Below are positions 7,252-44,579 of a DNA stretch of 64,000 nt, piece after piece. The first letter of the stretch is position 1. Each line of letters starts with the position of its first letter. The stretch covers positions 67,639-131,638 of the forward strand of contig JBNKOC010000027.1 of NCBI GenBank assembly GCA_050294405.1, given 5' to 3'. The position numbers were made by a program, and so were the translations under genes. Under the pieces are notes generated by a model. It made no database searches and had not been told where the DNA came from. It saw only the letters and a program-made list of their open reading frames with translations. Origin of the DNA: Fibrobacteria bacterium (GTDB lineage Bacteria; Fibrobacterota; Fibrobacteria; UBA11236; JADFYW01).

Positions 7252-8121
7252 ATGGAAATTAATGGCAACAGCAGGTTTATAGGTCTTTTTGGAAACCCTG
7301 TGGGCCATAGCCTTTCCCCGCAAATGCACAATCCTAATTTTGAAGATTGTGGCATAAACGCTATTTACATTCCTCTAAAAACCGACCCCAATAAAATTGC
7401 CACTGCCGTAGATGCTCTAAGGGCCTTTCATTTTTTAGGGGCTAATGTAACCATTCCTTTTAAGTCAGATGTTATTGCCCATTTAGATGAGGTTTCTGAA
7501 ATATCCCAAATCATTGGGGCGGTAAACACCATTGTAAATAAAGAAGGCAAATTGTGGGGCACTACCACAGATCCCGAAGGCTTTTTGACCAGTTTTAAAA
7601 CCATGGACGAAAATTTTGATAATAAATCCGTGGCCTTGTTTGGAACAGGCGGCACCGCGCGCACTTTGGCTTATGCTTTGAGCTTAATGGAATCCCCAAA
7701 ACAGATAAACATACTGGGGCGCAATAACGCAAAAGCCGCAAATTTGGCAGCCGAAGTGAAGGAAAAAACCGGTAAAAATATTAAGGGACACTCTATTTCT
7801 GATTTTTCAAAAATCACCCATGAAACAAATGTTATTATAAACGCCACTTCTGTGGGAATGGTTCCCAATACAGAAAATAGCGTGGCAAAATTCGAAGATT
7901 TAAATGAAGGGCAAGTGGTTTATGATGTTGTATACCAACCCGAAGAAACCGCCCTGCTGAAATCCGCCCGGCAAAAAGGCTTAAAATGTTTGGGAGGCTT
8001 GGGCATGTTAGTCTACCAGGGAATTTCCAGTTTTACCCATTGGACCGGTATTACTCCCAAGCCCGAACTTTATTTTAAAGCCCTACGACAAGCTCTTGAT
8101 AACAAAGAGGAGCACAAATAA
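7252..8121 (+). CDS. aroE: Shikimate 5-dehydrogenase
   Basis: GLFGNPVGHSLSPQMHN, GANVTIPFK, NTIV and the GTGGTARTLAY Rossmann motif. Confidence 0.9.
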   Translation: MEINGNSRFIGLFGNPVGHSLSPQMHNPNFEDCGINAIYIPLKTDPNKIATAVDALRAFHFLGANVTIPFKSDVIAHLDEVSEISQIIGAVNTIVNKEGKLWGTTTDPEGFLTSFKTMDENFDNKSVALFGTGGTARTLAYALSLMESPKQINILGRNNAKAANLAAEVKEKTGKNIKGHSISDFSKITHETNVIINATSVGMVPNTENSVAKFEDLNEGQVVYDVVYQPEETALLKSARQKGLKCLGGLGMLVYQGISSFTHWTGITPKPELYFKALRQALDNKEEHK

Positions 8122-9737
8122 TGGAATTCAAGCTCCCCAAGCGTATTTATTTTACGGGCTTTATGGCCACTGGAAAATCCAGAATGGCCGAGTTAACAGC
8201 TGCTGCCTTAAAATGGAAATTTTACGACACAGATCTATACATTGTCACTAAAACCGGGCTTACCATCTCCGAAATTTTTGAAAACGAAGGGGAAGCTGGC
8301 TTTAGAAAATTAGAGCTGGAAGCCCTTGAAGAATTAAGCAAAAAACGCCAGGCCGTAATTGCTTTAGGGGGAGGAAGCTTAACTCAACCCAAAGCCGTTG
8401 AATTGGTTAAAAACTCGGGCATTCTGGTGGGCCTTTGGGCCAAACCCTCCACCATTTTAGAAAGGGTCAACCGCAAAAACACCCGCCCCCTACTGGCCAA
8501 TTTGAGTGATGAAAAGAAAATGAAAAAAATTGTTCAGATGCTCGAAGAACGAAAAGACTATTACGACCTCGCGGACTTTCAGGTAGAGTCCAGAGAAGAT
8601 GTGCCTCACCATGTATTAACTCACAAAATTATAAATCGAATCCGTCTGGAATCTTTAAAACCCTTAACGGTGGAATTGGCGGAGAGAAGTTATCCCATAT
8701 ACATCGAGGAAAAAAACCTGCAATTGCTGCCTGCATTGTCAGAAAAACTGGAATTGCCCTCCCACTATGTCATTGTCACCGATGTGGTGCTAAAGGAAAA
8801 ACACAAAGAAGAACTAAAAAACCTATCGGCCCAACTGGGTAATTGCCGAAGCTTTTACTTTCGCACGGGAGAGGCCGAAAAATCTTTGGTTTCCATAAAC
8901 CGCCTTATTACATATTTGCTTAAACATAAATATTCCCGCAAAACCACCTTAATCGCTTACGGAGGAGGCATTGTGGGAGATATGGTTGGCTTTGCCGCTT
9001 CCATATTTTTAAGGGGAGTGCCCTTTGTTCAAGTACCCACCAGCTTATTGGCCATGGTAGACAGCTCCGTGGGAGGCAAAACGGGAGTCAACCACCGCTA
9101 TGGAAAAAATTTAATCGGGAGTTTTTACCAGCCCCGGGCCGTTATGATTCAAATAGCCGCCCTTAAAACTCTGCCCCATATTGAATACCTGGCAGGCATG
9201 GCCGAGGTGATTAAGTATGCCGTAATTTGGGATAAAAACTTTTTTGATTTTTTATGGGACAATTCAGAAGGCATTCTTAACAAAGATCCCGAACTGCTCC
9301 GAAAAATTTTGAAAAAATGCTGTGCCATAAAGGCCCAGGTGGTAAGCCAGGATGAAAAAGAATCCGGAATTAGAGCCATATTAAATTACGGACACACCTT
9401 TGGCCACGCCATCGAAACCCTGGCGGGTTACGGAAATTTAACTCACGGAATTGCCGTGGCCAGAGGAATGGTCGTAGCCATGCGGCTGGCAGTGCTTCTA
9501 AAAAAAATAAACCCATCAGCAGAAAGTAAACAGTTGGAGCTTTTGAAAAAATTTGACTTTCCTCTGAAATTTAATGTGAATGAGGAAAGCGCCTGGGATA
9601 TAATGGGAGTGGATAAAAAAGTCGAGGGAGATAAACGCATATATATTCTCCCCACGGAAATAGGAAAAGTGGAAAGGGTTTCTGGAGTTGCCAAGGAGTT
9701 GGTGCATCAGTCCTGGCAGGCTATTAAAAACCTGTAA
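8121..9737 (+). CDS. aroKB: Bifunctional shikimate kinase / 3-dehydroquinate synthase
   Basis: The N-terminal AroK P-loop is GFMATGKS. The C-terminal AroB has GGGIVGDMVGFAAS, VPTSLLAMVDSSVGGKTGVN and NYGHTFGHAIE. The start overlaps the aroE stop (TAATG). Confidence 0.92.
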   Translation: MEFKLPKRIYFTGFMATGKSRMAELTAAALKWKFYDTDLYIVTKTGLTISEIFENEGEAGFRKLELEALEELSKKRQAVIALGGGSLTQPKAVELVKNSGILVGLWAKPSTILERVNRKNTRPLLANLSDEKKMKKIVQMLEERKDYYDLADFQVESREDVPHHVLTHKIINRIRLESLKPLTVELAERSYPIYIEEKNLQLLPALSEKLELPSHYVIVTDVVLKEKHKEELKNLSAQLGNCRSFYFRTGEAEKSLVSINRLITYLLKHKYSRKTTLIAYGGGIVGDMVGFAASIFLRGVPFVQVPTSLLAMVDSSVGGKTGVNHRYGKNLIGSFYQPRAVMIQIAALKTLPHIEYLAGMAEVIKYAVIWDKNFFDFLWDNSEGILNKDPELLRKILKKCCAIKAQVVSQDEKESGIRAILNYGHTFGHAIETLAGYGNLTHGIAVARGMVVAMRLAVLLKKINPSAESKQLELLKKFDFPLKFNVNEESAWDIMGVDKKVEGDKRIYILPTEIGKVERVSGVAKELVHQSWQAIKNL

Positions 9738-10756: not shown

Positions 10757-11908
10757 ATGTTAGCCGAATTATTGTATGAAATTACAGGTTACAGCCTATT
10801 TCACGGAAGGCTTTTTCGGGCCGGGGCTGCGTCCATCACATCCATCTTGCTGGTTTTTATTTTTATGCCTATCCTTCTGCGTTGGGCGCAAAAAGTAAAC
10901 GCCAGTTCCGATTTTACCGAAGAGAAATCCAGCGCCCCTCCCATTTTAGGGGGAATATTATTGGTTCCGGTGGTTTTATTTTCCACCCTTTGCTTTACCA
11001 TTGTTAACAGTTATGTGTTATCCATTTTGGTTATTATGGTGGCCTTTTTTTCTATCGGCGCTGTGGACGACTTTGCCAAAATCTGGACTAAGCGTAAAAT
11101 CATGGAGGGAAAAGAAGAGAAAAAAAGCTACCAGGACAAGGCTGATGGCATCTCCGCACGTCTCAGACTGAGCCTTTATTTTTTCTTTTCTCTCATTGTT
11201 GCCATTTTCGCCTATAAATTTATTCCCGGCATGAACGGCCACATCAGCTTGCCCTTTATAAAGCCTGATGTTTGGTACCCGTATTTACCCAATTGGGCCT
11301 TCATAATTTTGATTTGCCTGGTCATCACCTCCACAGCCAACGGGGCCAACTTTACCGATGGCCTGGATAGCCTGGTTTCCATCCCCCTTATGACCACCGC
11401 TTTGTTTGTGGGAGTGGTCGCTTATATTTCGGGCAACACGGTTTTTTCCAAATATTTTTTAATACCCTATTTGCCCGGTGTAGACGAACTTTTTCCTTTA
11501 TGCGCCGCCATGATTGGCGCTCTGGCCGCCTATTTGTGGTTCAATAGCCCCCCTGCCCAGGTGTACATGGGCGATTCGGGCTCCATAGGATTTGGCGGAG
11601 CTATTGGTATGATGTTTGTGTTAATTAAAGCCGAATTTTTTATGCCCATTGTGGGCTTTGTATTTTTAATGGAAGCTCTTTCTGTTTTTTTCCAAATTGG
11701 ATGGTTTAAAATCACAAAAAACTTGCGGGCGGATAAACAAGGACAAAGGCTTTTTTTGCGGGCCCCCCTCCACCATCATTTCCAAATGTTATGGAAACAT
11801 CAATACCCAAATGCCAAGGAACTCAATTCAAAAATTGTATGGCGCTTTCATTTGGTGTCGCTTTTTGCGCTGGTTCTGGGTTCCCTCATATTTTTTAAAA
11901 TCAGATAA
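10757..11908 (+). CDS. mraY: Phospho-N-acetylmuramoyl-pentapeptide transferase
   Basis: AVDDFAKIW, NGANFTDGLDSL, MGDSGSIGFGGAIG and APLHHHFQ. It is polytopic. Confidence 0.88.
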   Translation: MLAELLYEITGYSLFHGRLFRAGAASITSILLVFIFMPILLRWAQKVNASSDFTEEKSSAPPILGGILLVPVVLFSTLCFTIVNSYVLSILVIMVAFFSIGAVDDFAKIWTKRKIMEGKEEKKSYQDKADGISARLRLSLYFFFSLIVAIFAYKFIPGMNGHISLPFIKPDVWYPYLPNWAFIILICLVITSTANGANFTDGLDSLVSIPLMTTALFVGVVAYISGNTVFSKYFLIPYLPGVDELFPLCAAMIGALAAYLWFNSPPAQVYMGDSGSIGFGGAIGMMFVLIKAEFFMPIVGFVFLMEALSVFFQIGWFKITKNLRADKQGQRLFLRAPLHHHFQMLWKHQYPNAKELNSKIVWRFHLVSLFALVLGSLIFFKIR

Positions 11909-12859
11909 TACCAGTTTTTTTCCCAGAGGGGCAGTGCTCTGGTTGCGGCTTTCTAAAATAGCGCTTTCTAAGGGGAAAAAATCCGTTAAATATATACATG
12001 CTAAAAATTCCACCCAGGGGTCCAGTTCCTCGCATTGGGGAAGGGTCCTGTAGTCAATATCCACTTCACATTTAAGGTTATTGTAGCTAAACTCGTAATG
12101 TTCGCCAGACACCACGCCCTCGCCATCCAGATTATAGTGATTCACCACTGTGGCTTTTCGGCTGCGAAGAAAAAGTTCGTAGCTTTGACAGCTTTTATCC
12201 TGAAACTGGAGGTTTTGAGACAATAGCCCCAGCGCATTGGAAATATCGGGAACGCTATCCACAAACACATCGTACATAAAATTAAACTCTTCCAAAACCA
12301 CCCAATCTGTAAAACTCGCCAGCTCACATAAGTTGGCTTCAATAACCGAGTACATGGAATCATTTTCAAAGCTGAAGGTTTCCAGCATATTATTTACCTG
12401 AAAAGTATCTGGAGGCGAAATAGAATCGCAAAGACTGCTTACTTCAAAACCTTCCGGAATAGCACCCGTTTGAGAATTGACACTAATCCAATCTCCCTCA
12501 AAAGGCAGTCCTTCTTCCGATTCATAGACCCAGGCTTCACAACGGTTAAAAGACCACAATTTTAAAGTATTGCCCTTAAACTCATAATACTGGGAATAGC
12601 CCAAAGAATCGTAAACCACACCTGAATCTGTGCACACGGGAAAATATTCGTAATAATCTATGGTGCTGCTGCTATCCTCAGCACTATAACTAAAAGCCGT
12701 TTTGAGGATAACTTTTCGCTTTGTGTAATCCACTTGAGGGATTTCAGGTGGGGGATCGGGGTCTTTATCCTTCGAACCGGCTCCATTCCCTCCGGTAAGA
12801 CAGCCCACTACCATAAAGGAAGATAAAAACACCAATGCCCAAATATTAAAAGCAGCCAT
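11828..12859 (-). CDS. Hypothetical lipoprotein
   Basis: The signal peptide has a lipobox-like FMVVGC, followed by a GNGAGSKDKDPDPPP linker. No family was recognised. Confidence 0.55.
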   Translation of the reverse strand: MAAFNIWALVFLSSFMVVGCLTGGNGAGSKDKDPDPPPEIPQVDYTKRKVILKTAFSYSAEDSSSTIDYYEYFPVCTDSGVVYDSLGYSQYYEFKGNTLKLWSFNRCEAWVYESEEGLPFEGDWISVNSQTGAIPEGFEVSSLCDSISPPDTFQVNNMLETFSFENDSMYSVIEANLCELASFTDWVVLEEFNFMYDVFVDSVPDISNALGLLSQNLQFQDKSCQSYELFLRSRKATVVNHYNLDGEGVVSGEHYEFSYNNLKCEVDIDYRTLPQCEELDPWVEFLACIYLTDFFPLESAILESRNQSTAPLGKKLVLSDFKKYEGTQNQRKKRHQMKAPYNF

Positions 12860-12924: not shown

Positions 12925-14040
12925 ATGAGCCTAGTTCAAACAGAATCCCCCAAATCCTCCACAAGAATTTTGGCCAAAATTTTAATCATCGACGACGAAG
13001 AATCCATTGGAATTGGAGTTTCCGATTTGCTCAATAGCTACGAATATTCTGCCGATTACGTTATGTCCGCAGAAGCGGGAGTAAAATATCTGGAATCCAA
13101 TCCCGATGTGGATATTGTGCTATTGGACATTAATTTGGGCACGGGAATGTCAGGCCTGGAAGCATTGCCGGTAATAAAAGATCGTTTTCGCTATGTGCAA
13201 ATTATAATGCTCACCAGCCACGACTCCATTGAAGTAGGCATAAAGGCCATGAAAAACGGGGCCCACGACTACCTCACCAAGCCTTTTGACGAGCGGAATT
13301 TTTTTGAGTTAGTTCCCCAAGCCCTGGAAAAGAAAAAACTCACACAGCTTAGCGATTTGTATTTGGGCATATTAGTTCACGATATGAACAACCCCCTCAA
13401 CAACATCAGCCTGGGCATGGATATGTTGAAAATTACTTTAAAGGAAAACCTGAATCCCAGACAAGAACGGCTTTTTGGGGTGGTCCATTCGGGCCTTTGG
13501 GAAATAAAAAACATGGTGCGCAACATTTTAAATGTGAACAAGTTTGAGCAGGGAGGTGTGGCTGCCCGCATCACCGAATTCGAGCTGCGTCCCTGTCTGG
13601 AAAAAACCCTGTCTATTTTTTCCGGCCTTATCCAAATTACCGAGAAAAAAATTAAAACCGAATTTTTATTGCCAGAAAATTCAAAAATCCATGCGGATAA
13701 GGAACTACTCAATCAGGTCATTGGCAATTTGCTTTCCAATTCCTTGCGATATTGCCCCAAAAATGAGGAAGTGGAATTTAAGGTGCAGTATTCTGAGCCA
13801 AAACTTTTGAAGTTTTCGGTGACCAACCCCGGTTCTTTTGTGCCTGATTCCATGAAAAATGAAATCTTCAACAAATTTTTTATCGGGCAAGCCCAGGAAA
13901 AAGGCAAATCCAACCGTAATTTTGGCCTGGGACTCTCCTATAGTAAAATGGCTGTGGAAGCCATGAATGGCCATATTTGGGTTGAAAGTCAGGAAAGTCC
14001 AGAAATAACAACTTTTCATTTCACAATCCCCCAATCCTGA
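12925..14040 (+). CDS. Soluble response-regulator receiver / histidine kinase hybrid (REC-HisKA-HATPase)
   Basis: The REC domain has IIDDEE, an acceptor Asp in VLLDINL (D68) and KPFD. The H-box is LVHDMNNPL (H152), the N-box is GNLLSNSLRY and the G2 box is FGLGLSY. Confidence 0.9.
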   Translation: MSLVQTESPKSSTRILAKILIIDDEESIGIGVSDLLNSYEYSADYVMSAEAGVKYLESNPDVDIVLLDINLGTGMSGLEALPVIKDRFRYVQIIMLTSHDSIEVGIKAMKNGAHDYLTKPFDERNFFELVPQALEKKKLTQLSDLYLGILVHDMNNPLNNISLGMDMLKITLKENLNPRQERLFGVVHSGLWEIKNMVRNILNVNKFEQGGVAARITEFELRPCLEKTLSIFSGLIQITEKKIKTEFLLPENSKIHADKELLNQVIGNLLSNSLRYCPKNEEVEFKVQYSEPKLLKFSVTNPGSFVPDSMKNEIFNKFFIGQAQEKGKSNRNFGLGLSYSKMAVEAMNGHIWVESQESPEITTFHFTIPQS

Positions 14041-14173
14041 AAAAATTGTTTGTTTTAAAAATCAAAAAGTTTTACCAAATTTATCCACAACCTTAAATCG
14101 ATATTGTTGAAAGCTGTAAATATTTTCGACAATCACATGCCATTTTAAGCAACTATTAACTCTTACTCACAAC

Positions 14174-14215
14174 TTTCCAACATCTTTTTGGCTAATGTTT
14201 ATTGAATGTTGGAAA
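14174..14215. repeat. 10-bp inverted repeat TTTCCAACAT-N22-ATGTTGGAAA upstream of the SRPBCC-PilZ gene
   Basis: Read directly from the sequence. It lies about 135 nt upstream of the ATG at 14351. Confidence 0.85.
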
Positions 14216-14350
14216 CAATTGTCTCCATTCCCCAATTCTAAATTTGCTGGAGCGCTAATTAGCTTGTGATGGACCTTGCGGGGATTTATATTTCTAAAAA
14301 GGCAATGAGTTTTAGTTAATGTTAACGAGTTGGGCACTCAAGGGGTTGTT

Positions 14351-15103
14351 ATGTCCATTCAGACTATAATCGCAGAAACATTTTTTGAAGGAATGAACCG
14401 CCAGGATAAAGTCTGGGATGTTATTAGCCATATTGAAGAACATTCTCAAAAACTGGCTAATGTATTAGACTTGTATTCCTTAAAAACTATGGCCACGGAA
14501 AAACATCTTTCCTGGAATGCCATGTTGGATGACGCTCCCTTTAGTTGGATAGAAAAAAATATTTTTGATTCGCAAAATAAAGTTCTCCAATTTGAGTCCC
14601 TTAGCGGTGACTTTGATATATGGAGAGGTAAATGGAAGGTGGGCCTTAACTCGAAAAACGCAGTGAGCCTAAAAATTAAATTGGAGTACGAATTAGGTAT
14701 TCCAGTTCTGGAAGAAAACATCAGCGACATTCTCCAAACAAAAGTTCATGGGTACTTAAAGTTGTTGCTTCTTAGTATTGGGCGAATTGTGGAGAACAAG
14801 CAAAGAGATGAAAGAGTTAATCCACGTTATTATTTAGATGCTTTTCACAATGCCACATTAAATGGGCTTAATTCTCCCATTAGCATTGTTGATATATCCA
14901 GGGGTGGGGCTAGAATCAAAATAAGCTCAGCTGTTGGAAAGTATACAGAGTCCATTACTATTGGACAAACTGAGCATGAAGTTGGAGAATTTATCCCTGA
15001 ACATGGCAATTTTGGTAGAATAATTTTTGCCCACGAATTATCTGATGAATCTTTATCAAGTATTCTTGACGAAGCAGAATACATTCGGGCCAACAGCAAT
15101 TAA
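14351..15103 (+). CDS. SRPBCC (cyclase/dehydrase-like ligand-binding) domain fused to a PilZ domain
   Basis: The ATG at 14351 is preceded by AAGGGG; the track start at 14330 is TTG. N-terminal motifs are KVWDVISHIEEH...SGDFDIWRGKWKV...LEYELGIPVLEE. The C-terminal PilZ motifs are RVNPR (RxxxR) and DISRGG (DxSxxG). Confidence 0.72.
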   Translation: MSIQTIIAETFFEGMNRQDKVWDVISHIEEHSQKLANVLDLYSLKTMATEKHLSWNAMLDDAPFSWIEKNIFDSQNKVLQFESLSGDFDIWRGKWKVGLNSKNAVSLKIKLEYELGIPVLEENISDILQTKVHGYLKLLLLSIGRIVENKQRDERVNPRYYLDAFHNATLNGLNSPISIVDISRGGARIKISSAVGKYTESITIGQTEHEVGEFIPEHGNFGRIIFAHELSDESLSSILDEAEYIRANSN

Positions 15104-15314
15104 CAAATTTAAAAAAGGAAATTCTTTACCGGAATTCCTTGTTCTTGGAGCCTTTATCTTTAATATTTAGTTATAGATAAATGTTTATTTAGTTTTTAAA
15201 GAAGTCATTTCCCGATAACATGGTTACAGCGCAAAAACCTGGCAAGTTTGCATTAATAAAACATGCTGCTAAAGAATATAGATACATAGTAGCTGATCCA
15301 GTTTAGGAATTATT

Positions 15315-16394
15315 TTGGAAAAAATTGCCTTTTTCATTAGTCCTGCAAATTGGGAAATTTTTTCTCAAAACTTAAACCAACTCAAGCCATCTAAAATATA
15401 CAGGGAAGAGCTTATAAAGCCAATGTTACAATGGGCTAACCCTAAGGTATTCAAAAGCTTTTCAGAACTTACATTCGATTCAAAAAAATATTTTGAAGGG
15501 TGTATAATTCTTGTTCCTTTTTTCCCGGATCGCCACTATAAAGACAGCAAATTTGTATTAGACAAAATAGAATCAGCTTTTGAGGTAGCAAAAAAAGAAA
15601 ACTGCACTATTGCAACATTAACAGGTTTTAATTCAATTGCTGTCCAAAGCAGAGAGTCTTATTTTGAGAAGAAATATAATATAAAGGTTACATCTGGAAA
15701 TACAACTACGGCGACAATAATCGTTAAATCAATATTGGACATATCCGATAAATTTAATCTTGATTTATCAGTTTCATCCTTAGCCATTATTGGAGCCACC
15801 GGAGACATTGGAAGAGGCTGCTTTTTAGGATTAGCCGAATATTTTCAAAAAATTTGGCTAACGGGCAGAGGTCTTAAGCCGCTGGAAGAGTTATACAATA
15901 CATATGCAAGCATCTATGATTGCGATATGGAAATTACAATGGATTCTGAATTTGCCATTTCTGAAAGCCAAATAGCCATTTTTGTAACAAGTTCCCCTAA
16001 AGAGCTATTTCATTTAAATGACTTACCAAAAAAGACAATAATTTGCGATGCTTCTTCTCCCATTAATATAAAAACCGGCGACTCGTTGAGAGATGACGTT
16101 TTTTTATACCACGGAGGAATAGTAAATATTCCCTTTGAGTTTAACTTGGGATTCGATTCAGGTTTGTCCAGCCAGAGTCATGTGTACGGCTGCGAACTTG
16201 AAGGTATGTTAATGGGTGTAAATCCCGATTTATCGGGGTCCCACGGAAGAGGAAATATAGACAGCTTTAGACTTAATACCTTTGAATCTGAGCTTATAAA
16301 ATATCCTAATATTAGTTTAGCTTATTCGTGGAAAAACAAACAGTATCACAACATGGAACTATTAACCTATGCGAACTATTGGCGGAACTCTTAA
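15315..16394 (+). CDS. Acyl-ACP reductase (AAR)-like NAD(P)-dependent reductase
   Basis: TLTGFNSI, TSGNTTTA, IIGATGDIGRG and YGCELEGML align by eye with cyanobacterial AAR (LGGFTSI, TTGNTHTA, VVGATGDIGSA, FACFAEAML). It has a TTG start. Confidence 0.65.
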   Translation: MEKIAFFISPANWEIFSQNLNQLKPSKIYREELIKPMLQWANPKVFKSFSELTFDSKKYFEGCIILVPFFPDRHYKDSKFVLDKIESAFEVAKKENCTIATLTGFNSIAVQSRESYFEKKYNIKVTSGNTTTATIIVKSILDISDKFNLDLSVSSLAIIGATGDIGRGCFLGLAEYFQKIWLTGRGLKPLEELYNTYASIYDCDMEITMDSEFAISESQIAIFVTSSPKELFHLNDLPKKTIICDASSPINIKTGDSLRDDVFLYHGGIVNIPFEFNLGFDSGLSSQSHVYGCELEGMLMGVNPDLSGSHGRGNIDSFRLNTFESELIKYPNISLAYSWKNKQYHNMELLTYANYWRNS

Positions 16395-19300
16395 AGGCCC
16401 ATTTCTTCCGCGATTTTAAAGGATAATTTTTCCACCGTAGAGTTTTCCAACACGTCCATTGAATTTATTTCGACAGCTAACTCCATTGAGATGGCTGAGA
16501 CTAATTCAACCGCTAATATGGAATCAATACCAAGATCATTTATCAGCGCATGATTTGAAATTTGACCGACATCAATGTTAAGCATTTTTGAAAGTGTTTC
16601 CTTTAAAAAAGTATGAATTGAATTAATGTCCTTTTTTATTGAATCTTGAACCCATTCAACTTGAGCCTTTTCTATTTTATACTTTTCTATAACTTTTCCA
16701 AAATATTTCGCATCATAAAAATCAGGGTATTTTTTTAGCCACTTACTCCAATCAGACTTGAAACATCCAATTTGAGGCTGATTAGTTCGCAGTGTCAGAT
16801 TAATAGTATTTAAAACATCGTCAATAGTTAAGTATTCCAGACCAATTGATTTTAAATAATTTTGGGCTGCCTGGTTCTTCGCCGCAGCGCCTACGGCTTC
16901 CACAGGCCCTAAATTTATAGAAAAGCTTGCAAAGCCTTGTAACCTCATATGCTGCATAAGACCATCTAAAAAGCCGTTTGACGCCCCGTAGGCCAACTGA
17001 CCCTGGTTTCCGACAATTGAAGTTATAGAAGAAAAACTAATGAAAAATTTTATTCTTTTTTTGTCCAATAGTTCAAAAATATTTAGGGCTCCTACAACTT
17101 TTGGGTTAAGTGTCTTAACAAAATTATTTCTTGTGACATTTTCAAATAATTTGTCTTCAATAACAGCTGCAGAGTGAAAAACACCTGAAATTTTAAATCC
17201 GGTACTCTGAATTTTATCGAAAAATTGTTTTAGTTCTGCTTTATTGGCTATGTCCATTTTACCTGAAAAAATTTGAATTCCAGATTCATTCGAGTTACGA
17301 ATGAAATTAATAGCTTCTTCGGATTTAGGCCCGCTCCTTCCGCACAATGCAATGTTTTTGGCCCCATTTTTTATCAACCATTTTGCCACCTCAATTCCCA
17401 GCCCTCCAAACCCTCCGGTAATCAGGAAAACATCCTTTGAATTAATAATGTTTTGTTTGATGTTTGCATCACAGACTGGAATTGGGAGGCGGGTTTCTTT
17501 ATTAATGTCTTCCACTCTTTTTAGACGCGCAAGATCCATCGGATCCAGAAAAATTGTATAAAATTTGTTTTTGATGCTGCATAAGCAATCTGTGTTACCG
17601 GCCATAAGGGTTAATTCTGAAGGAATATTATAATTAATAGCAAACCTCATATTCCGAAGTTCAATAGCCGCCGTTTTTAAGAAGCTGCTTATCATAGTAA
17701 ACTCGGGATTTTCCAAAGGGTTTTCATTTTTAGAATGCATTTTAACAATTACATTTCGAATATTGCCCGACTTGCCTGCCAAAGAAATAATGTTTTGAAG
17801 CCTGGCTAGGGTATCGGCAGTTTTATTGCCGTAAAAATTATTACTAGATGTAATATTTTGGATACTCAATGTATTTTTATTCTTAATATCCACGAAATTT
17901 TTGGAAGATACTTTTGCATTTAGACCCAATTTAATTACATCTACATTTGAAATGTCTAATACTTTATTTCTATCAATTTCCGTTAAGGATGGATTATAGT
18001 ATATCCAATTCTTAAATCCTGGAGATGGTATGGACTTGAACACTAAGTTTTCGACAACGGCTAATATGTGACCGTATTGGGATATTACCTTTAAGTTAAC
18101 AGCCATTTTTTCCTCTGAAGAGGTGTGGATTTCTCCATATACATAAAAACCCTCCTCTGGTAGAGAAAATATTGAAATTTTTTTAATCTCACTGGGTACA
18201 TATTTTTCATTATTTGGAACAAAAGCCAGACAAGCCTGAAGACATGCATCCAAATTTCCAGAAAAGTACTTAAAACCATCAATACTTTCGAAATTAAAAT
18301 TTATCTCGGCAAGGAATTCACTATCAAGCAGGAATAAATTCTTAATTGAAGCAAAACTTCTTTTATAATCGTACCCCAACTCCCGAAAGTAATCATATAC
18401 GTCATCTCCCAATATTGAAACTTTACCGAACTTTTGTTTCAATGTGACCAATTCAATTCCCGAAGGCTCTTCAAATTCACTAACATCAATATTTGCCCGA
18501 GCACATAAATTCCATGGAGATTCATTAGACACTTGCTTAGTATAGAATAATATATCAGATGCTTGTTCATTATAGTGGGTTTGCATATCCACTACATCTT
18601 CGTCTGGAATGACAATCATTTTCAATATTTTGAAGTTATGGATATCAAGCTTTTTTATACTCTCCTGATATTTTGTGAAATGTAATATTGAATCAATAAA
18701 ACCCATGCCGGGAAACACTTTTTTACCCAAGACACAGTGGTCAGGCAAAAATGGAAAAAAATAATCATTTAACTCCGCGTTCCATACTTCCCCAGGTACA
18801 TTCATTTTCACCTGCATAAATGGGCTATTGCCGGGGTTCCCTACCCTGGCTACCTTGGATTCTGGAGATTCTGACCAATGGTAGGATTTTTGCCAGGGAT
18901 AGCTTGGTATTCTTATAAAATTACCTCTCGGGTGAATAATTTGCTCCCAATTTATGTTCCCACCTATCGTAAAAAAAGAGGAAAGGGATTGAAAAAAGCA
19001 TTCCACCGCATCTTGCTCCCGTAACAGAGAATTAACATAGTTAAATGGTATCCTTTTTACATCACAGACTTTTTTAATTGATGATTTCAGCACATGATGT
19101 GCACTTATTTCAACAATAACATCATAACCGTCTTTCAGTGCTTCTTCGAATGCCTTGTGAAAATATACCGGTTGCCTGATGTTATTACACCAGTAATCTG
19201 GGTTGAAAACAGCATCATTTACTTTTTCGCCAAATACTGAAGAATAAAGATTAATAGCCGGAGCCTTAGACTTCAGGCCCTTTATTGATTTTCTGAATTT

Positions 19301-21514
19301 GGGTAATATGTGATCAATTATCGGACTGTGGTAGGGAACATTTACATTTAGCATTCTTGAAACTATTTTATTTTCATAAAGGATTGCTTTTAACCTTTTT
19401 AATTCTTCATGATCACCAGATAGTGTCACAGTATTAAAATCGTTGTATGCTCCTATTCCTATTGATTCAGGAACTAATTCAAATAACTCTTTCTTGTTTT
19501 CCTCCGTATAACTCACGGCTAACATTGAACCCTTTCCCTGGATACTTTTGTATGCCTGGCCTTTTCTAATAGACAGCAAAACTGCTTCACGCAATGTTAA
19601 ACACCCTGCGGCATGGGCTGCCGCTGTTTCTCCCAAACTATGGCCAATGCAGCCATCCGGTGTGACCCCATAGTGTTTCCACAGTTCCGTCAAGCTTAAT
19701 TGAAGACAAACCAAGGCTACTTGTAAAACTTCGGTATCATTTATTCGCGACTTTTCCTTTGACTTTGAAAGTTCTTTTACCAAAGACCAACCGGCATATT
19801 TACTTACAATCTTGTCGCATCTATCCAGAACATTTTTATAAATAGAGTTTTTTTTGTAAAGTTCTTTCCCCATTGCATGCCACTGCGGGCCCGAACCCGG
19901 AAAAACAAATAGTACTTTTGAATTTTTAGTTGCAACGGATCCACGAATTATATTTGCGTTCTTTTTTAAATCTTTTAAAAGGCTTAGTTTTTCTTTTAGT
20001 TCCTCTGTGTTTTTGCCAATAATAACAGCTCTCTCCGAATGATGGGTTCTTCGATAGCTGAGTGTGTAAGCAAAATCATTCAAGTTTATGCTTTTTTTAT
20101 TCAAAAAATCATGGTAACGGCTCGCTGTTTCGGCTAGAGCCCGTTCCCCTCTTGCTGTAATTGGGAGCATATAAAAAGGCTCAAGTATTTTTGCTGATTT
20201 TATTTTTTCTGTTTTAGTCCAATTGCTCAAAATCGCATGTCCGTTTGAGCCCCCATAGCCAAAAGAATTGACTGAAGCCAAAAGATATTTCTTTGAGGGA
20301 AGTTTCTTATTTTTTTGGGTGACATGGATTAACAGCGATTTAAAATCAATCTCCGGGTTCAATTTCGCGGAATGGAGTGAGGGGACAACAGCCTGATGCT
20401 TCAAGATCAGAGACGCCTTTATGATTCCAGCAATCCCCGCTGCTGCTTCGGTATGGCCTATATTTGACTTAATGGACCCCACATCAACCTTTGACTTCAC
20501 TCCCTCACTTTTTAGTAACTCGTTGATGGACCAGCTTTCTGCCTTGTCTCCTGCATCAGTACCTGTTCCGTGAGCCTCAAAATAAACCAAGTTTTTTACG
20601 GATTTTGGTATTTCAGAATAGGCTTTCTTCATTAATTTTAATTGAGCCTCGGGACTGGGCAATGTAATTCCGTTGGTTCTACCGTCCTGGTTAATTCGGA
20701 CATTTTCAATAACTGCATAAATTTTGTCCCCATTTTTTACTGCATCTTCAAGCGGTCTAACAACCACTACTCCCGCACCTTCTCCTCTGCCGTATCCATT
20801 GGCATTATCTCCAAAAGCTCTGGAACGGTTTGAAATTAAACTACCTTTTGCAAGATTCACCATTGAAATAGGGTTAAAAATCACGTTAACTCCCCCAATT
20901 AAGGCAACATCTGATTCCTTATTTTGAATTGATTGAAACGCCAGGGCCAAAGCCGTCATTGAGGAAGAGCAGGCAGTATCCACAGATAAACTTGGGCCTT
21001 TAAAATCAAATACATAAGAAACTTTATTTGAAATGACAGACATCATCACATTTATAGCATGTTCTTTTTTTATAGAATAACGATTTAGATACCCGCTTTG
21101 GTGCAGATAATTTTCTAAGTGAAAGGCTCCAACGAACACTCCAGTTGTCATTTTTTGTAATTCAGACAATGTGAGTCCACTATCCTCTATAGCCTCCCAT
21201 GAGGATTCAAGAATTAACCTTTGTTGCGGGTCTATGGAATCCACTTCGTTTGCATTGAGACCAAAAAATAGAGGGTCAAATTCCCACAATGAGCTTGTGA
21301 GAAAACCGGCTTCAAGTGCGTTTGATTTTCCAGGTTTATTAGGATTGGGATGGTAGAATTTCCTTAAATCCCACCTGTCTGTTGGAATTTTTCTGAAGCA
21401 GTCTTTCCCTGAAACTAAGTTGTTCCACAAGGCCTCCACAGAGTCTGCCCCGCCGGGAAATCGACAGCCTATGCCAGTTATGGCAAGAGGGCTTTTTCTC
21501 AGATTTTTCATCAA
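16391..21514 (-). CDS. Type I polyketide synthase, single module KS-AT-DH-KR-ACP
   Basis: KS has DTACSSS (C182), EAHGTGT and NIGHTEAAAG. AT has GHSLGE (S626). DH has HCVLGKKVFP (H926) and DACLQ. KR has ITGGFGGLG and Y1509. ACP has LGIDS (S1665). The protein ends 42 aa after the ACP Ser. Confidence 0.95.
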   Translation of the reverse strand: MMKNLRKSPLAITGIGCRFPGGADSVEALWNNLVSGKDCFRKIPTDRWDLRKFYHPNPNKPGKSNALEAGFLTSSLWEFDPLFFGLNANEVDSIDPQQRLILESSWEAIEDSGLTLSELQKMTTGVFVGAFHLENYLHQSGYLNRYSIKKEHAINVMMSVISNKVSYVFDFKGPSLSVDTACSSSMTALALAFQSIQNKESDVALIGGVNVIFNPISMVNLAKGSLISNRSRAFGDNANGYGRGEGAGVVVVRPLEDAVKNGDKIYAVIENVRINQDGRTNGITLPSPEAQLKLMKKAYSEIPKSVKNLVYFEAHGTGTDAGDKAESWSINELLKSEGVKSKVDVGSIKSNIGHTEAAAGIAGIIKASLILKHQAVVPSLHSAKLNPEIDFKSLLIHVTQKNKKLPSKKYLLASVNSFGYGGSNGHAILSNWTKTEKIKSAKILEPFYMLPITARGERALAETASRYHDFLNKKSINLNDFAYTLSYRRTHHSERAVIIGKNTEELKEKLSLLKDLKKNANIIRGSVATKNSKVLFVFPGSGPQWHAMGKELYKKNSIYKNVLDRCDKIVSKYAGWSLVKELSKSKEKSRINDTEVLQVALVCLQLSLTELWKHYGVTPDGCIGHSLGETAAAHAAGCLTLREAVLLSIRKGQAYKSIQGKGSMLAVSYTEENKKELFELVPESIGIGAYNDFNTVTLSGDHEELKRLKAILYENKIVSRMLNVNVPYHSPIIDHILPKFRKSIKGLKSKAPAINLYSSVFGEKVNDAVFNPDYWCNNIRQPVYFHKAFEEALKDGYDVIVEISAHHVLKSSIKKVCDVKRIPFNYVNSLLREQDAVECFFQSLSSFFTIGGNINWEQIIHPRGNFIRIPSYPWQKSYHWSESPESKVARVGNPGNSPFMQVKMNVPGEVWNAELNDYFFPFLPDHCVLGKKVFPGMGFIDSILHFTKYQESIKKLDIHNFKILKMIVIPDEDVVDMQTHYNEQASDILFYTKQVSNESPWNLCARANIDVSEFEEPSGIELVTLKQKFGKVSILGDDVYDYFRELGYDYKRSFASIKNLFLLDSEFLAEINFNFESIDGFKYFSGNLDACLQACLAFVPNNEKYVPSEIKKISIFSLPEEGFYVYGEIHTSSEEKMAVNLKVISQYGHILAVVENLVFKSIPSPGFKNWIYYNPSLTEIDRNKVLDISNVDVIKLGLNAKVSSKNFVDIKNKNTLSIQNITSSNNFYGNKTADTLARLQNIISLAGKSGNIRNVIVKMHSKNENPLENPEFTMISSFLKTAAIELRNMRFAINYNIPSELTLMAGNTDCLCSIKNKFYTIFLDPMDLARLKRVEDINKETRLPIPVCDANIKQNIINSKDVFLITGGFGGLGIEVAKWLIKNGAKNIALCGRSGPKSEEAINFIRNSNESGIQIFSGKMDIANKAELKQFFDKIQSTGFKISGVFHSAAVIEDKLFENVTRNNFVKTLNPKVVGALNIFELLDKKRIKFFISFSSITSIVGNQGQLAYGASNGFLDGLMQHMRLQGFASFSINLGPVEAVGAAAKNQAAQNYLKSIGLEYLTIDDVLNTINLTLRTNQPQIGCFKSDWSKWLKKYPDFYDAKYFGKVIEKYKIEKAQVEWVQDSIKKDINSIHTFLKETLSKMLNIDVGQISNHALINDLGIDSILAVELVSAISMELAVEINSMDVLENSTVEKLSFKIAEEMGL

Positions 21515-21655
21515 TTTTTACATCCTTCCAAGAATCCAAAACAAATTCTCAAACCAATTCATTACTGCATTCAATCTAAAAACTAATGAACTTTAAATAA
21601 GAATTCTAAAAACATATAGTTTTTTGTTAAAAAAATGAATTTAGGTAGGTAAACA

Positions 21656-21664
21656 TGATATAAT
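21656..21664 (+). promoter_or_regulatory. Extended -10 element TGATATAAT upstream of the giant kinase gene
   Basis: The TGnTATAAT element lies about 125 nt upstream of the ATG at 21788, in the PKS/kinase divergent region. Confidence 0.35.
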
Positions 21665-21787
21665 CTGCAAATAATCTACAAAAACTCTATTTGGACTTAA
21701 TCGAAAGAAGAACATGATTTTAAATACTACTTTTGATTTAATCAGGCAAGGTTTTAGTCTATATAGGTGAAAAGGATTTAGCCAAAT

Positions 21788-26920: not shown

Positions 26921-27004
26921 GTCTCACTAAGACCAAAAAATCTAAAGCTACTAAAGTTTCTAAACTTATATGTGCCCGTCTGCCGGGATTCCCCTAAAAA
27001 TTGG

Positions 27005-27013
27005 TGGTATAAT
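27005..27013 (+). promoter_or_regulatory. Extended -10 element TGGTATAAT upstream of the minor-pilin operon
   Basis: The TGnTATAAT element lies about 90 nt upstream of the ATG at 27104. Confidence 0.35.
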
Positions 27014-27103
27014 AATAGTAGTTAGTGATATCTGAAAAGGACTCAAATTTAGTTTCAATGGTCCTTTGATTTGGGTTGTTTTAAACGCTATTAATCGCAT
27101 TAA

Positions 27104-27625
27104 ATGAATTTTAACTGGACCAAAAGCATATACGGATCCAAGGAGAGTCCTGAAAAGGGATTCACTATTATGGAGCTTGTAATGGTATTGGCTATCATCA
27201 CCATTTTGACCACACTAGCCGCTCCCAAATTTAAATCCTGGAAGGAAATAATTGATTTACACAATACCACCAGGCAAATAAAAGGGCAATTGGACTTTGC
27301 CAAGGTAAGGGCATTGACCAACCCACTGGTCCATTGTGGAGTTTATTTTAAAACAAGTTCACCCTCTTACTCCGCCATCTTTTTTGACACTGCAATGGTT
27401 GGGTCATACGATTATAACATGGGCCAGGACCCCTTATATCAGGCAGCTTTGGAAATCCCCCCCGGTCTTAACGTTTCATTATCCATCCCAGGCGGCAAAG
27501 ACGAGGTTATTTTCCGAGGAGACGGCTCCTCTAACACAAATGCAAACATAATAATTTCCAATGGATTTATGTCTGATACCATTAACATTCTTGCAAGCAC
27601 TGGCAGAATTAAAATATTAAAATGA
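27104..27625 (+). CDS. Type IV minor pilin / pseudopilin, FimT-GspH-like
   Basis: The prepilin cleavage/methylation motif KG/FTIMELV has Glu at +5, followed by a hydrophobic helix. Confidence 0.78.
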   Translation: MNFNWTKSIYGSKESPEKGFTIMELVMVLAIITILTTLAAPKFKSWKEIIDLHNTTRQIKGQLDFAKVRALTNPLVHCGVYFKTSSPSYSAIFFDTAMVGSYDYNMGQDPLYQAALEIPPGLNVSLSIPGGKDEVIFRGDGSSNTNANIIISNGFMSDTINILASTGRIKILK

Positions 27626-28825: not shown

Positions 28826-28833
28826 GGCATTGC

Positions 28834-44514: not shown

Positions 44515-44579
44515 AATTCTAAAACATTTTCTTTAAGCTGAATTCTCAGTCTTTTACCTGTATTAGTTTAGGTGTTATT

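Follow-up and report, generated by a model that had tools for sequence, protein, structure and literature searches.

PilZ proteins are classic receptors of c-di-GMP, in which the output is set by the partner domain. The 64-kb stretch of DNA analysed here (referred to as the window) encodes a protein whose PilZ domain is joined to a domain of the SRPBCC/START superfamily, and the corresponding gene lies beside genes for a histidine kinase, a thioester reductase and a polyketide synthase (PKS). The first-pass annotation of this region had proposed a two-input adaptor or enzyme that couples the product of the locus, or a tailoring step, to c-di-GMP. This raises the question of which of the neighbouring genes the protein is functionally connected with, and whether it serves biosynthesis or signal transduction.

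Gene and overall architecture of the SRPBCC-PilZ protein

The SRPBCC-PilZ gene (positions 14351-15103, forward strand) is an intact open reading frame, with a stop-free translation of 250 aa followed by a stop codon. Its start is likely to be ATG 14351 and not TTG 14330, since an AAGGGG Shine-Dalgarno-like run precedes this ATG and the related proteins align from M1. Two independent assemblies contain the protein with identical sequence (100%). The gene of the window starts 310 nt (14041-14350) after the end of the kinase gene upstream and ends 211 nt before the reductase gene downstream. A scan for consensus promoters and terminators around the gene performed no better than on shuffled sequences, and Rfam identified no RNA family in the window, thus no riboswitch, c-di-GMP riboswitches included.

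The AlphaFold2 model obtained with a 45-sequence alignment as input had a pLDDT of 92 and a pTM of 0.79 (a single-sequence run reached a pLDDT of only 32). In this model, a helix-grip domain is joined by a linker of 10 residues to a six-stranded part that ends in a C-terminal helix; at the domain junction DSSP assigns the long helix that closes the helix-grip domain (118-149), coil (150-159) and a strand (160-170). Pfam searches, the related proteins, PDB profile matches and this model all agree that both domains of the fusion described in the first-pass annotation are real. The three strings quoted there (VWDVISHIEEH, SGDFDIWRGKWKV and LEYELGIPVLEE) are present in the translation, and the PilZ motifs R155-V-N-P-R159 and D181-I-S-R-G-G186 occupy exactly the residues given, as verified from the codons on the DNA.

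The N-terminal domain is of the START type

Residues 1-149 (14351-14797, forward strand) form a TTHA0849-like SRPBCC/START domain, whose helix-grip fold is evident from both the Foldseek matches and the secondary structure of the model. The match of the window protein to Pfam PF03364 (Polyketide_cyc) is a marginal pass (E=5.9e-5, 23.8 bits vs a gathering threshold of 23.4), and the same model was matched by all 45 full-length relatives (best E 6.2e-20). No NCBIfam model matched the window protein, even at E ≤10. The closest solved structure is the START protein TTHA0849 of Thermus thermophilus (2d4r), detected by PDB sequence search (E=4.7e-5) and by Foldseek with the whole model (TM 0.95, rmsd 1.4 Å, E=1.4e-12, 21% identity). 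Foldseek returned 341 PDB matches at E ≤0.001 and the best 50 of these were all START-superfamily proteins, none of them PilZ. Among the matches listed are START receptors and carriers (PYL2, PR-10 and a cytokinin-binding protein), as well as the aromatic polyketide ARO/CYC enzymes ZhuI, TcmN, WhiE and StfQ (10-14% identity).

Residues R17, W22, W55, P63, W66, G86-D87-F88, G93, W95, Y113, P118 and E121 are near-invariant among the 45 relatives, and the model and alignment place the conserved aromatics W55, W66, F88, W95 and Y113 on strands of the sheet. The pattern W...W...GDFD...G.W...YEL.IP is common to the SRPBCC domain and TTHA0849. The latter differs in being a single-domain protein of unassigned function, with no PilZ domain and with an unusually small cavity (approximately 18 cubic angstroms; 2026 START review), which means that a lipid-sized ligand is not assured for the SRPBCC domain. 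Sequestration of metabolic intermediates is put forward in the same review as a possible role of START proteins with cavities this small, TTHA0849 among them.

The PilZ signature is conserved

The C-terminal domain (residues 150-250; 14798-15100, forward strand) comprises a linker loop, six beta-strands and a C-terminal helix. Profile searches, which the first-pass annotation had named as a check on both domains, supported the PilZ assignment through the relatives, but not with the window protein alone: the latter scored below threshold against Pfam PilZ (PF07238; E=0.084, 13.7 bits vs a gathering threshold of 22.5), with an alignment restricted to the N-terminal half of the profile, whereas 37 of the 45 full-length relatives matched it at E ≤0.01 (best 6.5e-12). 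When a family profile of the C-terminal half was compared with the PDB, the top matches were the c-di-GMP-binding PilZ proteins PA4608/MapZ, YpfA and Alg44 (best E=1.6e-3), with YcgR, MrkH and VCA0042 lower among the matches. In the register of this comparison, R155 and R159 fall on the RxxxR motif of PA4608.

The predicted model has the layout of a PilZ core, i.e. a six-stranded barrel (strands 160-170, 173-182, 186-191, 201-204, 207-216 and 221-226) and a helix (232-249). The RxxxR motif (14813-14827, forward strand) is located in the coil 150-159 of the interdomain linker, ahead of the first of these strands. The second motif, [D/N]hSxxG in the refined definition (10.1101/814665), lies at 14891-14908 (forward strand) and spans the beta2-beta3 turn, from the end of strand 173-182 to the start of strand 186-191. 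Both arginines were present in all 45 full-length relatives, while D/N was found at position 181 in 43, a hydrophobic residue at 182 in 44, and S183 and G186 in 44 relatives each, against an overall identity of approximately 25%. The conservation of these residues and the register with PA4608 support the view that the PilZ signature is intact, as the first-pass annotation had stated, and under selection.

A rare family with a conserved gene cluster

An exhaustive HMMER search identified approximately 45 full-length two-domain relatives with 20-34% identity; by comparison, a word-indexed search retrieved only the window protein itself when this was used as the query, and five proteins when the 45-sequence profile was used. 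The architecture is not unique to the window but belongs to a small family (approximately 45-50 clusters at 50% identity), with nearly all of its members in Fibrobacterota. PilZ-less relatives of the SRPBCC domain exist as well. The earlier statement that no SRPBCC-PilZ protein is known to have been characterised agrees with the PilZ and START literature that we searched: the fusion is mentioned neither in two PilZ surveys nor in the 2026 review of bacterial START proteins, and papers on PilZ with SRPBCC or polyketide cyclase contained incidental co-mentions only. Judged from sequence comparison, SRPBCC-PilZ is a rare, uncharacterised family of Fibrobacterota with a conserved gene cluster.

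The gene neighbourhood was analysed in 54 related loci, gathered with a 10-sequence alignment. The most tightly coupled neighbour of the SRPBCC-PilZ gene is that of a REC-HisKA-HATPase kinase (12925-14040, forward strand; Pfam), located directly upstream in 30 of 34 related loci and absent from the remaining four. The distance from the kinase stop to the SRPBCC-PilZ start has a median of 3 nt (≤5 nt in 19/35 loci, often 1-3 nt). The catalytic residues of the REC and histidine-kinase parts are conserved in these kinases, with D23, D24, D68, T97 and K119, the H152 box and the N and G boxes all retained. In one subgroup (L017-L019 and L036) the kinase still adjoins SRPBCC-PilZ, although no reductase, ligase or TPP enzyme gene is present within up to 9.9 kb downstream. 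Conversely, L011, L035 and L051 carry the reductase and no kinase.

The conserved downstream partner, which the first-pass annotation had named simply as a reductase, is an acyl-ACP-reductase-like thioester reductase (15315-16394, forward strand), distantly homologous to acyl-ACP reductase (AAR) and to the PigE N-terminal domain. It matched NCBIfam TIGR04058 (E=1.4e-18, 67 bits vs a cut-off of 450), the PigE N-terminal domain model (E=2.9e-16, 59 bits vs a cut-off of 850) and PDB entry 6jzq (E=1.1e-10), and it retains the Rossmann motif GxxGxxG (160-166) and a conserved cysteine (C293), which aligns with the active-site Cys of acyl-ACP reductase. The reductase gene is directly downstream of SRPBCC-PilZ in 28 of 33 two-domain loci (not adjacent in five), with a median gap of 50 nt, and it was also found next to or near all six PilZ-less SRPBCC relatives for which downstream sequence was available. 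The relatives usually carry, in addition, a FadD-like acyl-CoA ligase, an acetolactate-synthase-like TPP enzyme (the best 25 NCBIfam matches of which are acetolactate-synthase-type models, none of them PigD) and a giant sensor kinase. The latter is a Ser/Thr kinase-AAA-GAF-HisKA-HATPase protein of 1710 aa (21788-26920, forward strand; Pfam), with homologues of 30-37% identity in 17 of 22 loci with enough downstream sequence. The conserved order is REC-HisKA-HATPase kinase, SRPBCC-PilZ and reductase, usually followed by ligase, TPP enzyme and giant kinase; as far as the sequences compared indicate, the kinase/SRPBCC-PilZ/reductase cluster is specific for Fibrobacterota. Both kinases had been omitted from the first-pass account of the neighbourhood.

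Proposed function and resemblance to known systems

The best reading of these observations, to which we assign a probability of roughly 45% as a whole, including the steps of its mechanism, is that the gene product is a soluble two-domain signalling adaptor: responsive to c-di-GMP, it would take up a small hydrophobic compound made by the reductase pathway and modulate the presumably co-translated kinase. The two-input adaptor proposed in the first-pass annotation remains the most economical interpretation, with the exception of the link to the PKS, which was not supported.

Judging from its motifs, the PilZ domain would bind c-di-GMP, probably a c-di-GMP monomer, since the residue preceding RxxxR is E or D (E154 in the window protein) and not R. 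In two-domain PilZ proteins c-di-GMP binding is located in the interdomain linker (PilZ review). As the RxxxR loop of SRPBCC-PilZ is itself this linker, the bound nucleotide would probably lock the SRPBCC domain onto the barrel, by analogy with proteins of the YcgR/PlzD type. The SRPBCC pocket may hold a small hydrophobic carbonyl compound (an aldehyde or keto-aldehyde) originating from the adjacent thioester-reductase pathway, and the doubly loaded protein may dock on the REC-histidine kinase and alter its phosphotransfer. That the reductase gene lies next door would be expected just as well if the protein had a purely biosynthetic role. Other points against the adaptor model are the sub-threshold PilZ score of the window protein, the small cavity of TTHA0849, the gaps of 310 and 211 nt that separate the gene from its neighbours in the window, the loci that lack the kinase (four of 34) or an adjacent reductase (five of 33), and the lack of c-di-GMP turnover genes in the window and the related loci.

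A precedent for the docking on the kinase comes from Pseudomonas aeruginosa, in which the PilZ receptor HapZ (PA2799) attaches at high c-di-GMP to the REC domain of SagS, a hybrid kinase, and alters phosphotransfer. SRPBCC-PilZ is similarly associated with a REC-containing histidine kinase, being encoded 0-5 nt after it in 19 of 35 loci, a gene order that suggests an interaction. In contrast, HapZ is a single-domain PilZ protein without a ligand-binding partner domain, and no specific sequence relationship between the two was detectable beyond the PilZ fold. In domain order SRPBCC-PilZ resembles YcgR, PlzD (VCA0042) and MrkH, in which an N-terminal accessory domain precedes a canonical PilZ domain and RxxxR lies in the interdomain linker, so that c-di-GMP binding can re-orient both domains. 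However, the N-terminal domain of those proteins is a degenerate PilZ-like barrel (PilZN, PilZNR, PilZN2), while here it is an unrelated helix-grip domain.

The PYR/PYL/RCAR abscisic-acid receptors have this helix-grip fold in common with the SRPBCC domain, at the fold level only (Foldseek E ~2e-7, 14-16% identity). When a ligand occupies the START pocket of PYR/PYL proteins, a surface is formed through which a PP2C phosphatase is bound and regulated, and the adaptor model follows this logic. They differ in being eukaryotic single-domain proteins with a PP2C partner and no nucleotide second-messenger input. As regards the pathway, the TPP enzyme, acyl-CoA ligase and AAR/PigE-N-like reductase of the relatives recall the route to a keto-aldehyde in the MAP branch of prodigiosin biosynthesis, catalysed by PigD (TPP) and PigE (thioester reductase). 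PigE differs in that the cluster reductase scores far below the equivalog cut-offs and lacks an aminotransferase domain, and the PigE paper mentions no SRPBCC or PilZ partner for PigD/PigE/AAR systems.

A broader version of the adaptor model, speculative and rather unlikely as it stands, is a lipid-signal circuit of Fibrobacterota, complete in itself and confined to that phylum. An AAR-type pathway would make a small hydrophobic aldehyde or keto-aldehyde signal, and SRPBCC-PilZ would be its intracellular receptor, forming an AND-gate with c-di-GMP; in its loaded state it would directly switch a REC-histidine kinase/Ser-Thr-kinase phosphorelay. The proposed signal pathway would be PKS-fed in the genome of the window and ligase/TPP-fed in the relatives.

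Alternative explanations

The protein might instead be a c-di-GMP-gated biosynthetic accessory, in which the SRPBCC domain acts as an acceptor, carrier or chaperone for a reactive aldehyde, PilZ gates the flux, and the kinases regulate transcription only; we consider this possible but doubtful. In cyanobacteria, the aldehyde released by AAR is passed to aldehyde-deformylating oxygenase, and in BcsA and Alg44 c-di-GMP-dependent flux is exerted through PilZ. Apart from the frequent reductase adjacency (28/33 two-domain loci) and the three loci with reductase and no kinase, an indication comes from L048, L054, L056 and L057, in which genes of PilZ-less SRPBCC proteins lie directly beside the reductase gene, sometimes overlapping it; the pairing of SRPBCC and reductase is thus older than the fusion with PilZ and also occurs where there is no kinase. 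Sequestration of intermediates, as suggested for small-cavity STARTs in the 2026 review, would also fit. Against this, SRPBCC-PilZ is coupled more tightly to the kinase than to the reductase (median gaps of 3 and 50 nt, respectively), and L017-L019 and L036 maintain the kinase and SRPBCC-PilZ in the absence of the reductase, ligase and TPP enzyme genes. The accessory role and the adaptor model are not mutually exclusive.

It is improbable that the PilZ domain is a protein-protein module deaf to c-di-GMP, or a binder of another nucleotide, which would leave the protein as a START adaptor of the kinase with the ligand as its sole input. RRxxxR is typical of many strong c-di-GMP binders, and the residue before RxxxR is acidic (E/D) in 34 of the 45 relatives. 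Besides this difference, such a reading could account for the sub-threshold, half-profile PilZ match of the window protein and for the lack of c-di-GMP turnover genes nearby: neither the window nor the related loci showed a GGDEF, EAL or HD-GYP gene, the GG[DE]EF pattern did not occur in any of the six reading frames of the window or of loci L001-L022, and an EAL-type pattern yielded, in the window, one weak match (EVLSR) inside an ImuB-like gene. Some PilZ lineages have indeed lost c-di-GMP binding (PilZ reviews). However, PilZ proteins without binding have lost the motifs, whereas here these are invariant or near-invariant at approximately 25% identity, a conservation not easily accounted for unless a nucleotide is bound.

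The connection with polyketide biosynthesis was suggested by the window itself, in which SRPBCC-PilZ does lie, as the first-pass annotation had described, directly upstream of the reductase/PKS pair. The PKS (16391-21514, reverse strand; Pfam, NCBIfam) is a single-module type I enzyme (KS-AT-DH-KR-ACP), convergent with the reductase gene and located 1.3 kb from the SRPBCC-PilZ gene. It proved to be window-specific. The comparison with relatives proposed in the first-pass annotation revealed no PKS homologue in any of the 54 related loci, where the FadD-like ligase and the acetolactate-synthase-like TPP enzyme occupy its place. A catalytic cyclase/dehydratase that modifies what the neighbouring PKS makes, under c-di-GMP control, the other possibility raised initially, is consequently very unlikely and found no specific support. 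The Foldseek matches to ZhuI, TcmN, WhiE and StfQ, the proximity of the PKS and the invariant polar residues R17, D87, Y113 and E121 might speak for it, but the conserved residues are common to TTHA0849, and the identity to ARO/CYC enzymes is 10-14%, as opposed to a TM of 0.95 to the non-enzymatic-looking TTHA0849. ARO/CYC enzymes serve type II PKS systems. No type II minimal PKS (KS-alpha, KS-beta, ACP) was found nearby, and the PKS of the window, being of type I, reducing (DH, KR) and convergent, is not a system of the kind served by these enzymes. The PKS-tailoring cyclase was rejected on the basis of the 54 related loci.

Finally, the names "ribosome-associated toxin RatA" and "RatA family toxin", under which relatives appear in public records (JGI, NCBI), and the fact that PF03364 also covers RatA/Coq10 would be in line with a RatA (PasT/Coq10-like) type II toxin or a ubiquinone-binding protein, but this is scarcely credible, and the toxin identity was rejected, as no NCBIfam model, RatA included, matched at E ≤10, the gene is flanked by those of a kinase and a reductase and has no RatB-like partner, the names disregard the PilZ half, and the toxin-antitoxin status of RatA/PasT has itself been disputed (2026 START review).

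Significance for Fibrobacterota and START proteins

Fibrobacterota are known largely from metagenome-assembled genomes. For this phylum, the present analysis defines a six-gene signalling-plus-lipid-carbonyl cluster, corrects a tempting link to polyketide biosynthesis and identifies the "RatA toxin" labels in public records as a systematic mis-annotation. Bacterial START proteins typically contain a single START domain and are poorly understood (2026 review); the conserved fusion and its operon provide a testable handle on the role of the TTHA0849-like subfamily. A START/SRPBCC partner would add to c-di-GMP signalling a logic that combines the second messenger with a small hydrophobic ligand. 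The lipid-signal circuit, if true, would make SRPBCC-PilZ the first START-domain c-di-GMP effector and the equivalent, in bacteria, of plant START receptors of the PYR/PYL type.

Identification of the two domains

The gene at 14351-15103 (+) is an unbroken open reading frame of 250 codons, the opposite strand of which is riddled with stop codons. Its ATG at position 14351 is preceded by AAGGGG, and alignments of the homologues begin at Met1. The sequence segments cited in the first-pass annotation for an SRPBCC domain (VWDVISHIEEH, SGDFDIWRGKWKV and LEYELGIPVLEE) are present exactly as quoted, all within residues 1-122, and the residue numbers given for the two PilZ motifs are also exact (R155-V-N-P-R159, codons 14813-14827; D181-I-S-R-G-G186, codons 14891-14908).

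Analysis of the single sequence revealed a match of residues 19-121 to the Pfam family Polyketide_cyc (23.8 bits vs a gathering threshold of 23.4; E=5.9e-5), while PilZ was seen only when the C-terminal 101 residues were scanned alone (E=0.084; 13.7 bits vs 22.5). A word-indexed search of 5.8 billion proteins retrieved only the protein itself. Exhaustive HMMER comparison with 1.84 billion cluster representatives yielded 220 relatives (E <=1e-3): approximately 45-50 proteins of 250-400 aa, aligned over both halves with 20-34% identity, the remainder being stand-alone SRPBCC proteins of ~150 aa. Among the 45 full-length relatives that were aligned, Polyketide_cyc was detected in all and PilZ in 37 (best value 6.5e-12). 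The conserved columns of this alignment (R155 and R159, 45/45 each; D/N181, 43/45; a hydrophobic residue at 182, S183 and G186, 44/45 each; background column identity ~25%) match the motifs RxxxR and [D/N]hSxxG, as defined in a structural survey of PilZ proteins (10.1101/814665). When a profile of the C-terminal half was compared with all PDB sequences, the top matches were PilZ proteins known to bind c-di-GMP, namely PA4608/MapZ (E=1.6e-3), YpfA/MotI and Alg44, with YcgR, MrkH and VCA0042 ranking lower, below matches to Exoribonuclease 2; in this register R155 and R159 fall on the RxxxR of PA4608. The evidence for the predicted PilZ domain is of the family level and not of the single sequence. 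Both domain assignments stand, which confirms the original observation, and we consider the SRPBCC-PilZ architecture highly probable.

In six relatives of 340-376 aa (P0004, P0005, P0010, P0018, P0022, P0047) the full-length and the 10-sequence alignments show that the first PilZ domain is followed by another PilZ-like repeat, with a segment of the 'xxxNxSxxGM' type and a C-terminal helix (SRPBCC-PilZ-PilZ).

Predicted structure

AlphaFold2 modelling gave a pLDDT of 32 without an alignment, and of 92 (pTM 0.79) with the alignment of the 45 relatives. In the latter model the N-terminal half is a helix-grip domain (strands 4-12 and 38-114, helices 18-34 and 118-149), followed by a coil (150-159) that bears RxxxR. 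The C-terminal half consists of six strands (160-226) and a terminal helix (232-249), i.e. the elements of the canonical PilZ core (10.1101/814665). All of the listed Foldseek matches of the full model in the PDB align to the N-terminal domain. The first of these is TTHA0849 (2D4R; TM 0.95 on the target, rmsd 1.4 A, 21% identity), the cavity of which measures only ~18 cubic angstroms (2026 review of bacterial START proteins), followed by ARO/CYC polyketide cyclases, thebaine and norcoclaurine synthases, PYL abscisic-acid receptors and PR-10/cytokinin-binding proteins.

Genetic context in the window

On sequence evidence the window (40% GC) derives from the chromosome of a divergent member of the Fibrobacterota: its HflX is 63-66% identical to proteins named Fibrobacterota or Fibrobacteria, and the SRPBCC-PilZ protein is identical in two assemblies (a 498-kb contig of NCBI GCA_050293925.1 and an independent Logan assembly). 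The lowest GC content was found in 14001-28000 (0.32-0.375 per 2 kb vs 0.40 overall and 0.42-0.46 in the left flank). This stretch, which begins right at the SRPBCC-PilZ gene (the upstream kinase gene has 0.42), may be a compositional island, or may just reflect fast-evolving signalling genes.

The upstream gene (12925-14040, +) encodes, according to Pfam, a REC-HisKA-HATPase kinase without a sensor domain. It retains REC residues D23, D24, D68, T97 and K119, H152 of the H box, and the N and G boxes, and is likely to be an active phosphorelay element. Downstream lies a gene (15315-16394, +) for a 359-aa protein with no Pfam match, which resembles cyanobacterial acyl-ACP reductase (AAR) structures (6jzq, E=1.1e-10); all of its family and structure scores are far under equivalog cut-offs. 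Both GxxGxxG (160-166) and C293 show at least 95% conservation among 27 homologues, and in a phmmer alignment C293 stands opposite the Cys of the AAR segment 'FACFAE', a residue that serves as the acyl-enzyme nucleophile. For these reasons the label "reductase", proposed previously, is right. The next gene (16391-21514, -) encodes a single-module KS-AT-DH-KR-ACP polyketide synthase (PKS); it is convergent with the reductase gene, the stops overlapping by 4 nt. It is followed by a gene (21788-26920, +) for a 1710-aa Pkinase-AAA_16-GAF-HisKA-HATPase protein which, as it has no REC domain, is a plausible upstream phosphodonor to the REC-histidine kinase. Given the gaps of 310 nt (kinase side) and 211 nt (reductase side) that flank the SRPBCC-PilZ gene, the operon structure in the window is unproven.

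Several other features were observed in the window. A 343-aa ORF (11828-12859, -) with no Pfam or NCBIfam match appears among the gene calls of both assemblies, and overlaps by ~80 nt the 3' end of a GT4 glycosyltransferase gene (10757-11908) on the opposite strand; no counterpart was found among related loci L003-L022. Directly after the giant kinase gene there is a pseudopilin/adhesin-like set: two small proteins that bear N-terminal methylation motifs of the prepilin type (27104-27625 and 28028-28825) and a PA14-domain protein (28822-30543), whose gene overlaps the second of these. At 52213-56557 (-), the gene for a 1049-aa protein of the DNA polymerase III alpha type is overlapped at its end by one for a Y-family polymerase-like protein (IMS/IMS_C, 406 aa), a layout typical of imuB-dnaE2 error-prone repair cassettes. 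A fused shikimate kinase-dehydroquinate synthase (SKI and DHQ_synthase, 538 aa) is encoded at 8121-9737 (+). Genes for an alginate-lyase-domain protein, a ThuA-like protein and a glucuronyl esterase (GCE_fung domain) at 41756-48159 would fit a lifestyle of polysaccharide or lignocellulose degradation.

Gene order in related loci

Pattern scans seeded from the 10-sequence alignment identified 20 loci in GTDB species genomes (18 of them Fibrobacterota MAGs or SAGs of Chitinispirillaceae, Chitinivibrionales and Fibrobacteria) and 36 in JGI metagenomes. All ORFs of these loci were compared with the proteins of the window cluster and two proteins of locus L004. Neighbours were counted for the 46 loci with the two-domain protein, at least 1.2 kb of flank being required for the kinase and reductase denominators. 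The REC-HisKA-HATPase gene lies directly upstream in 30 of 34 loci and the AAR-like reductase gene directly downstream in 28 of 33; a FadD-like acyl-CoA ligase is present in 18/25, an acetolactate-synthase-like TPP enzyme in 14/22 and a Ser/Thr-kinase-GAF-histidine kinase in 17/22. The conserved Fibrobacterota cluster (window 12925-26920; loci L003-L016, L020, L023, L031, L037, L041, L045 and L051) comprises these genes, the last encoding a ~1700-aa Ser/Thr-kinase-AAA-GAF-histidine kinase. No ligase or TPP enzyme gene was found in the 64 kb of the window, and the convergent PKS gene in their position suggests an exchange of the module that supplies acyl thioesters.

The ligase gene seems split or frameshifted in L011 (12628-15324), L013 (12519-13932) and L014 (12618-13980), which could be due to decay or assembly errors; the ligase remnant of L011 is separated from the TPP gene by a gene for a B12-binding radical SAM protein (14017-15324, -).

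One subgroup from Chitinispirillaceae, made up of L017-L019 and L036, retains the kinase and SRPBCC-PilZ genes and has no reductase genes. In L019 (1894-8360), Pfam instead places there a glycosyltransferase of family 2 and an exporter of the TolC/HlyD/ABC/MacB type, which may point to an output of the envelope or exopolysaccharide type. Conversely, L011, L035 and L051 carry the reductase set without the kinase.

Proposed function and alternative explanations

From the architecture, motif conservation and gene order we infer a mechanism in which the PilZ domain would bind c-di-GMP, a step that we regard as probable. RxxxR is preceded by an acidic residue (E or D) in 34/45 relatives, and by Arg in PA4608; in the comparison of PP4397 and VCA0042 by Ko et al. 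in 2010, a non-Arg residue at this site reportedly favours a c-di-GMP monomer. Given the E/D, c-di-GMP would probably be bound as a monomer. Since RxxxR lies in the 10 residues that join the C-terminal helix of SRPBCC to barrel strand 1, nucleotide binding should fix the relative position of the domains, i.e. lock SRPBCC against the PilZ barrel; in two-domain PilZ proteins the interdomain linker is the binding site and the ligand fixes the domains (10.1101/814665). The C-terminal helix of START folds forms one wall of the ligand cavity (2026 review of bacterial START proteins), so ligand and c-di-GMP inputs could be coupled allosterically through it.

The SRPBCC pocket may hold a small, hydrophobic carbonyl compound that the reductase pathway forms as its product or as an intermediate; the small cavity of TTHA0849 is a caveat here. 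In the relatives, the set of ligase, TPP enzyme and AAR-like reductase is reminiscent of the PigD/PigE pathway leading to a keto-aldehyde; in the window genome the reducing PKS module could instead supply an ACP-bound acyl chain. The output would be regulation of the co-translated REC-histidine kinase, with precedents in HapZ, whose binding target at high c-di-GMP is the REC domain of SagS, and, for START-based output, in the PYL receptors found among the Foldseek matches. The full adaptor mechanism, from c-di-GMP and ligand to kinase, has in our estimate slightly under an even chance (roughly 0.45). No GGDEF, EAL or HD-GYP gene was seen in the window or related loci (GG[DE]EF pattern, window and L001-L022; EAL-type pattern, window only).

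Instead, the protein might serve the reductase as a c-di-GMP-gated accessory that accepts or chaperones the product, without direct contact with the kinase. This is a weaker but sizeable possibility, favoured by the stand-alone SRPBCC-reductase pairs: an AAR-like gene is adjacent or near in all six loci in which a PilZ-less SRPBCC gene (~150 aa) has downstream sequence (L048, L050, L052, L054, L056, L057), and the two genes overlap in three of them (pairs on metagenome contigs: L048 8001-9588, L054 10-1499, L056 3-1393, L057 266-2103). The pairing is thus older than the PilZ fusion and, judging from these loci, exists independently of PilZ and the kinase, whose recruitment the fusion accompanies. 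As the whole story, however, this explanation conflicts with the reductase-free subgroup and with the tighter coupling to the kinase: the gap between the kinase stop and the SRPBCC-PilZ start is <=5 nt in 19/35 loci (median 3 nt), and that between the SRPBCC-PilZ stop and the reductase start has a median of 50 nt.

Loss of nucleotide binding by the PilZ domain is unlikely, as it is hard to square with the invariant motif residues. Slightly less credible still is a catalytic cyclase acting with the PKS, which failed the conservation test: homologues of the window PKS were found in 0/54 related loci. The PKS link of the first-pass annotation was therefore not borne out; its fusion and reductase link hold, and the partnership with the kinase had been overlooked.

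Public databases name the relatives 'hypothetical protein' or 'RatA toxin'. P0004, P0005, P0010, P0012 (NCBI MFC1584032.1), P0019 and P0024 are called 'ribosome-associated toxin RatA of RatAB toxin-antitoxin module' or 'RatA family toxin', names in which PilZ is unmentioned. A toxin identity is highly improbable, since NCBIfam gave no match and the neighbouring genes lend no support; the naming looks like systematic over-annotation from the PF03364/COG level.

PilZ fusions described in the survey 10.1101/814665 include PilZ dimers, PilZN/PilZNR, HlyD (Alg44), cellulose synthase, REC, GGDEF, EAL, HD-GYP, MCP and CheC. A large similarity-network survey of PilZ proteins makes no mention of START, lipid or polyketide domains, and when full texts were searched for PilZ together with SRPBCC or polyketide cyclase, incidental co-mentions alone came up. 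In line with the first-pass annotation, which knew of none, the literature searched contains no characterised SRPBCC-PilZ protein. The fusion may already be an InterPro architecture entry; precomputed Pfam annotation of four relatives lists SRPBCC families only. We rate the protein as a PilZ effector whose partner domain is new, encoded in a conserved, previously undescribed operon. With all of its function inferred, it overturns no principle, but would provide a directly testable lead for the c-di-GMP/START field.
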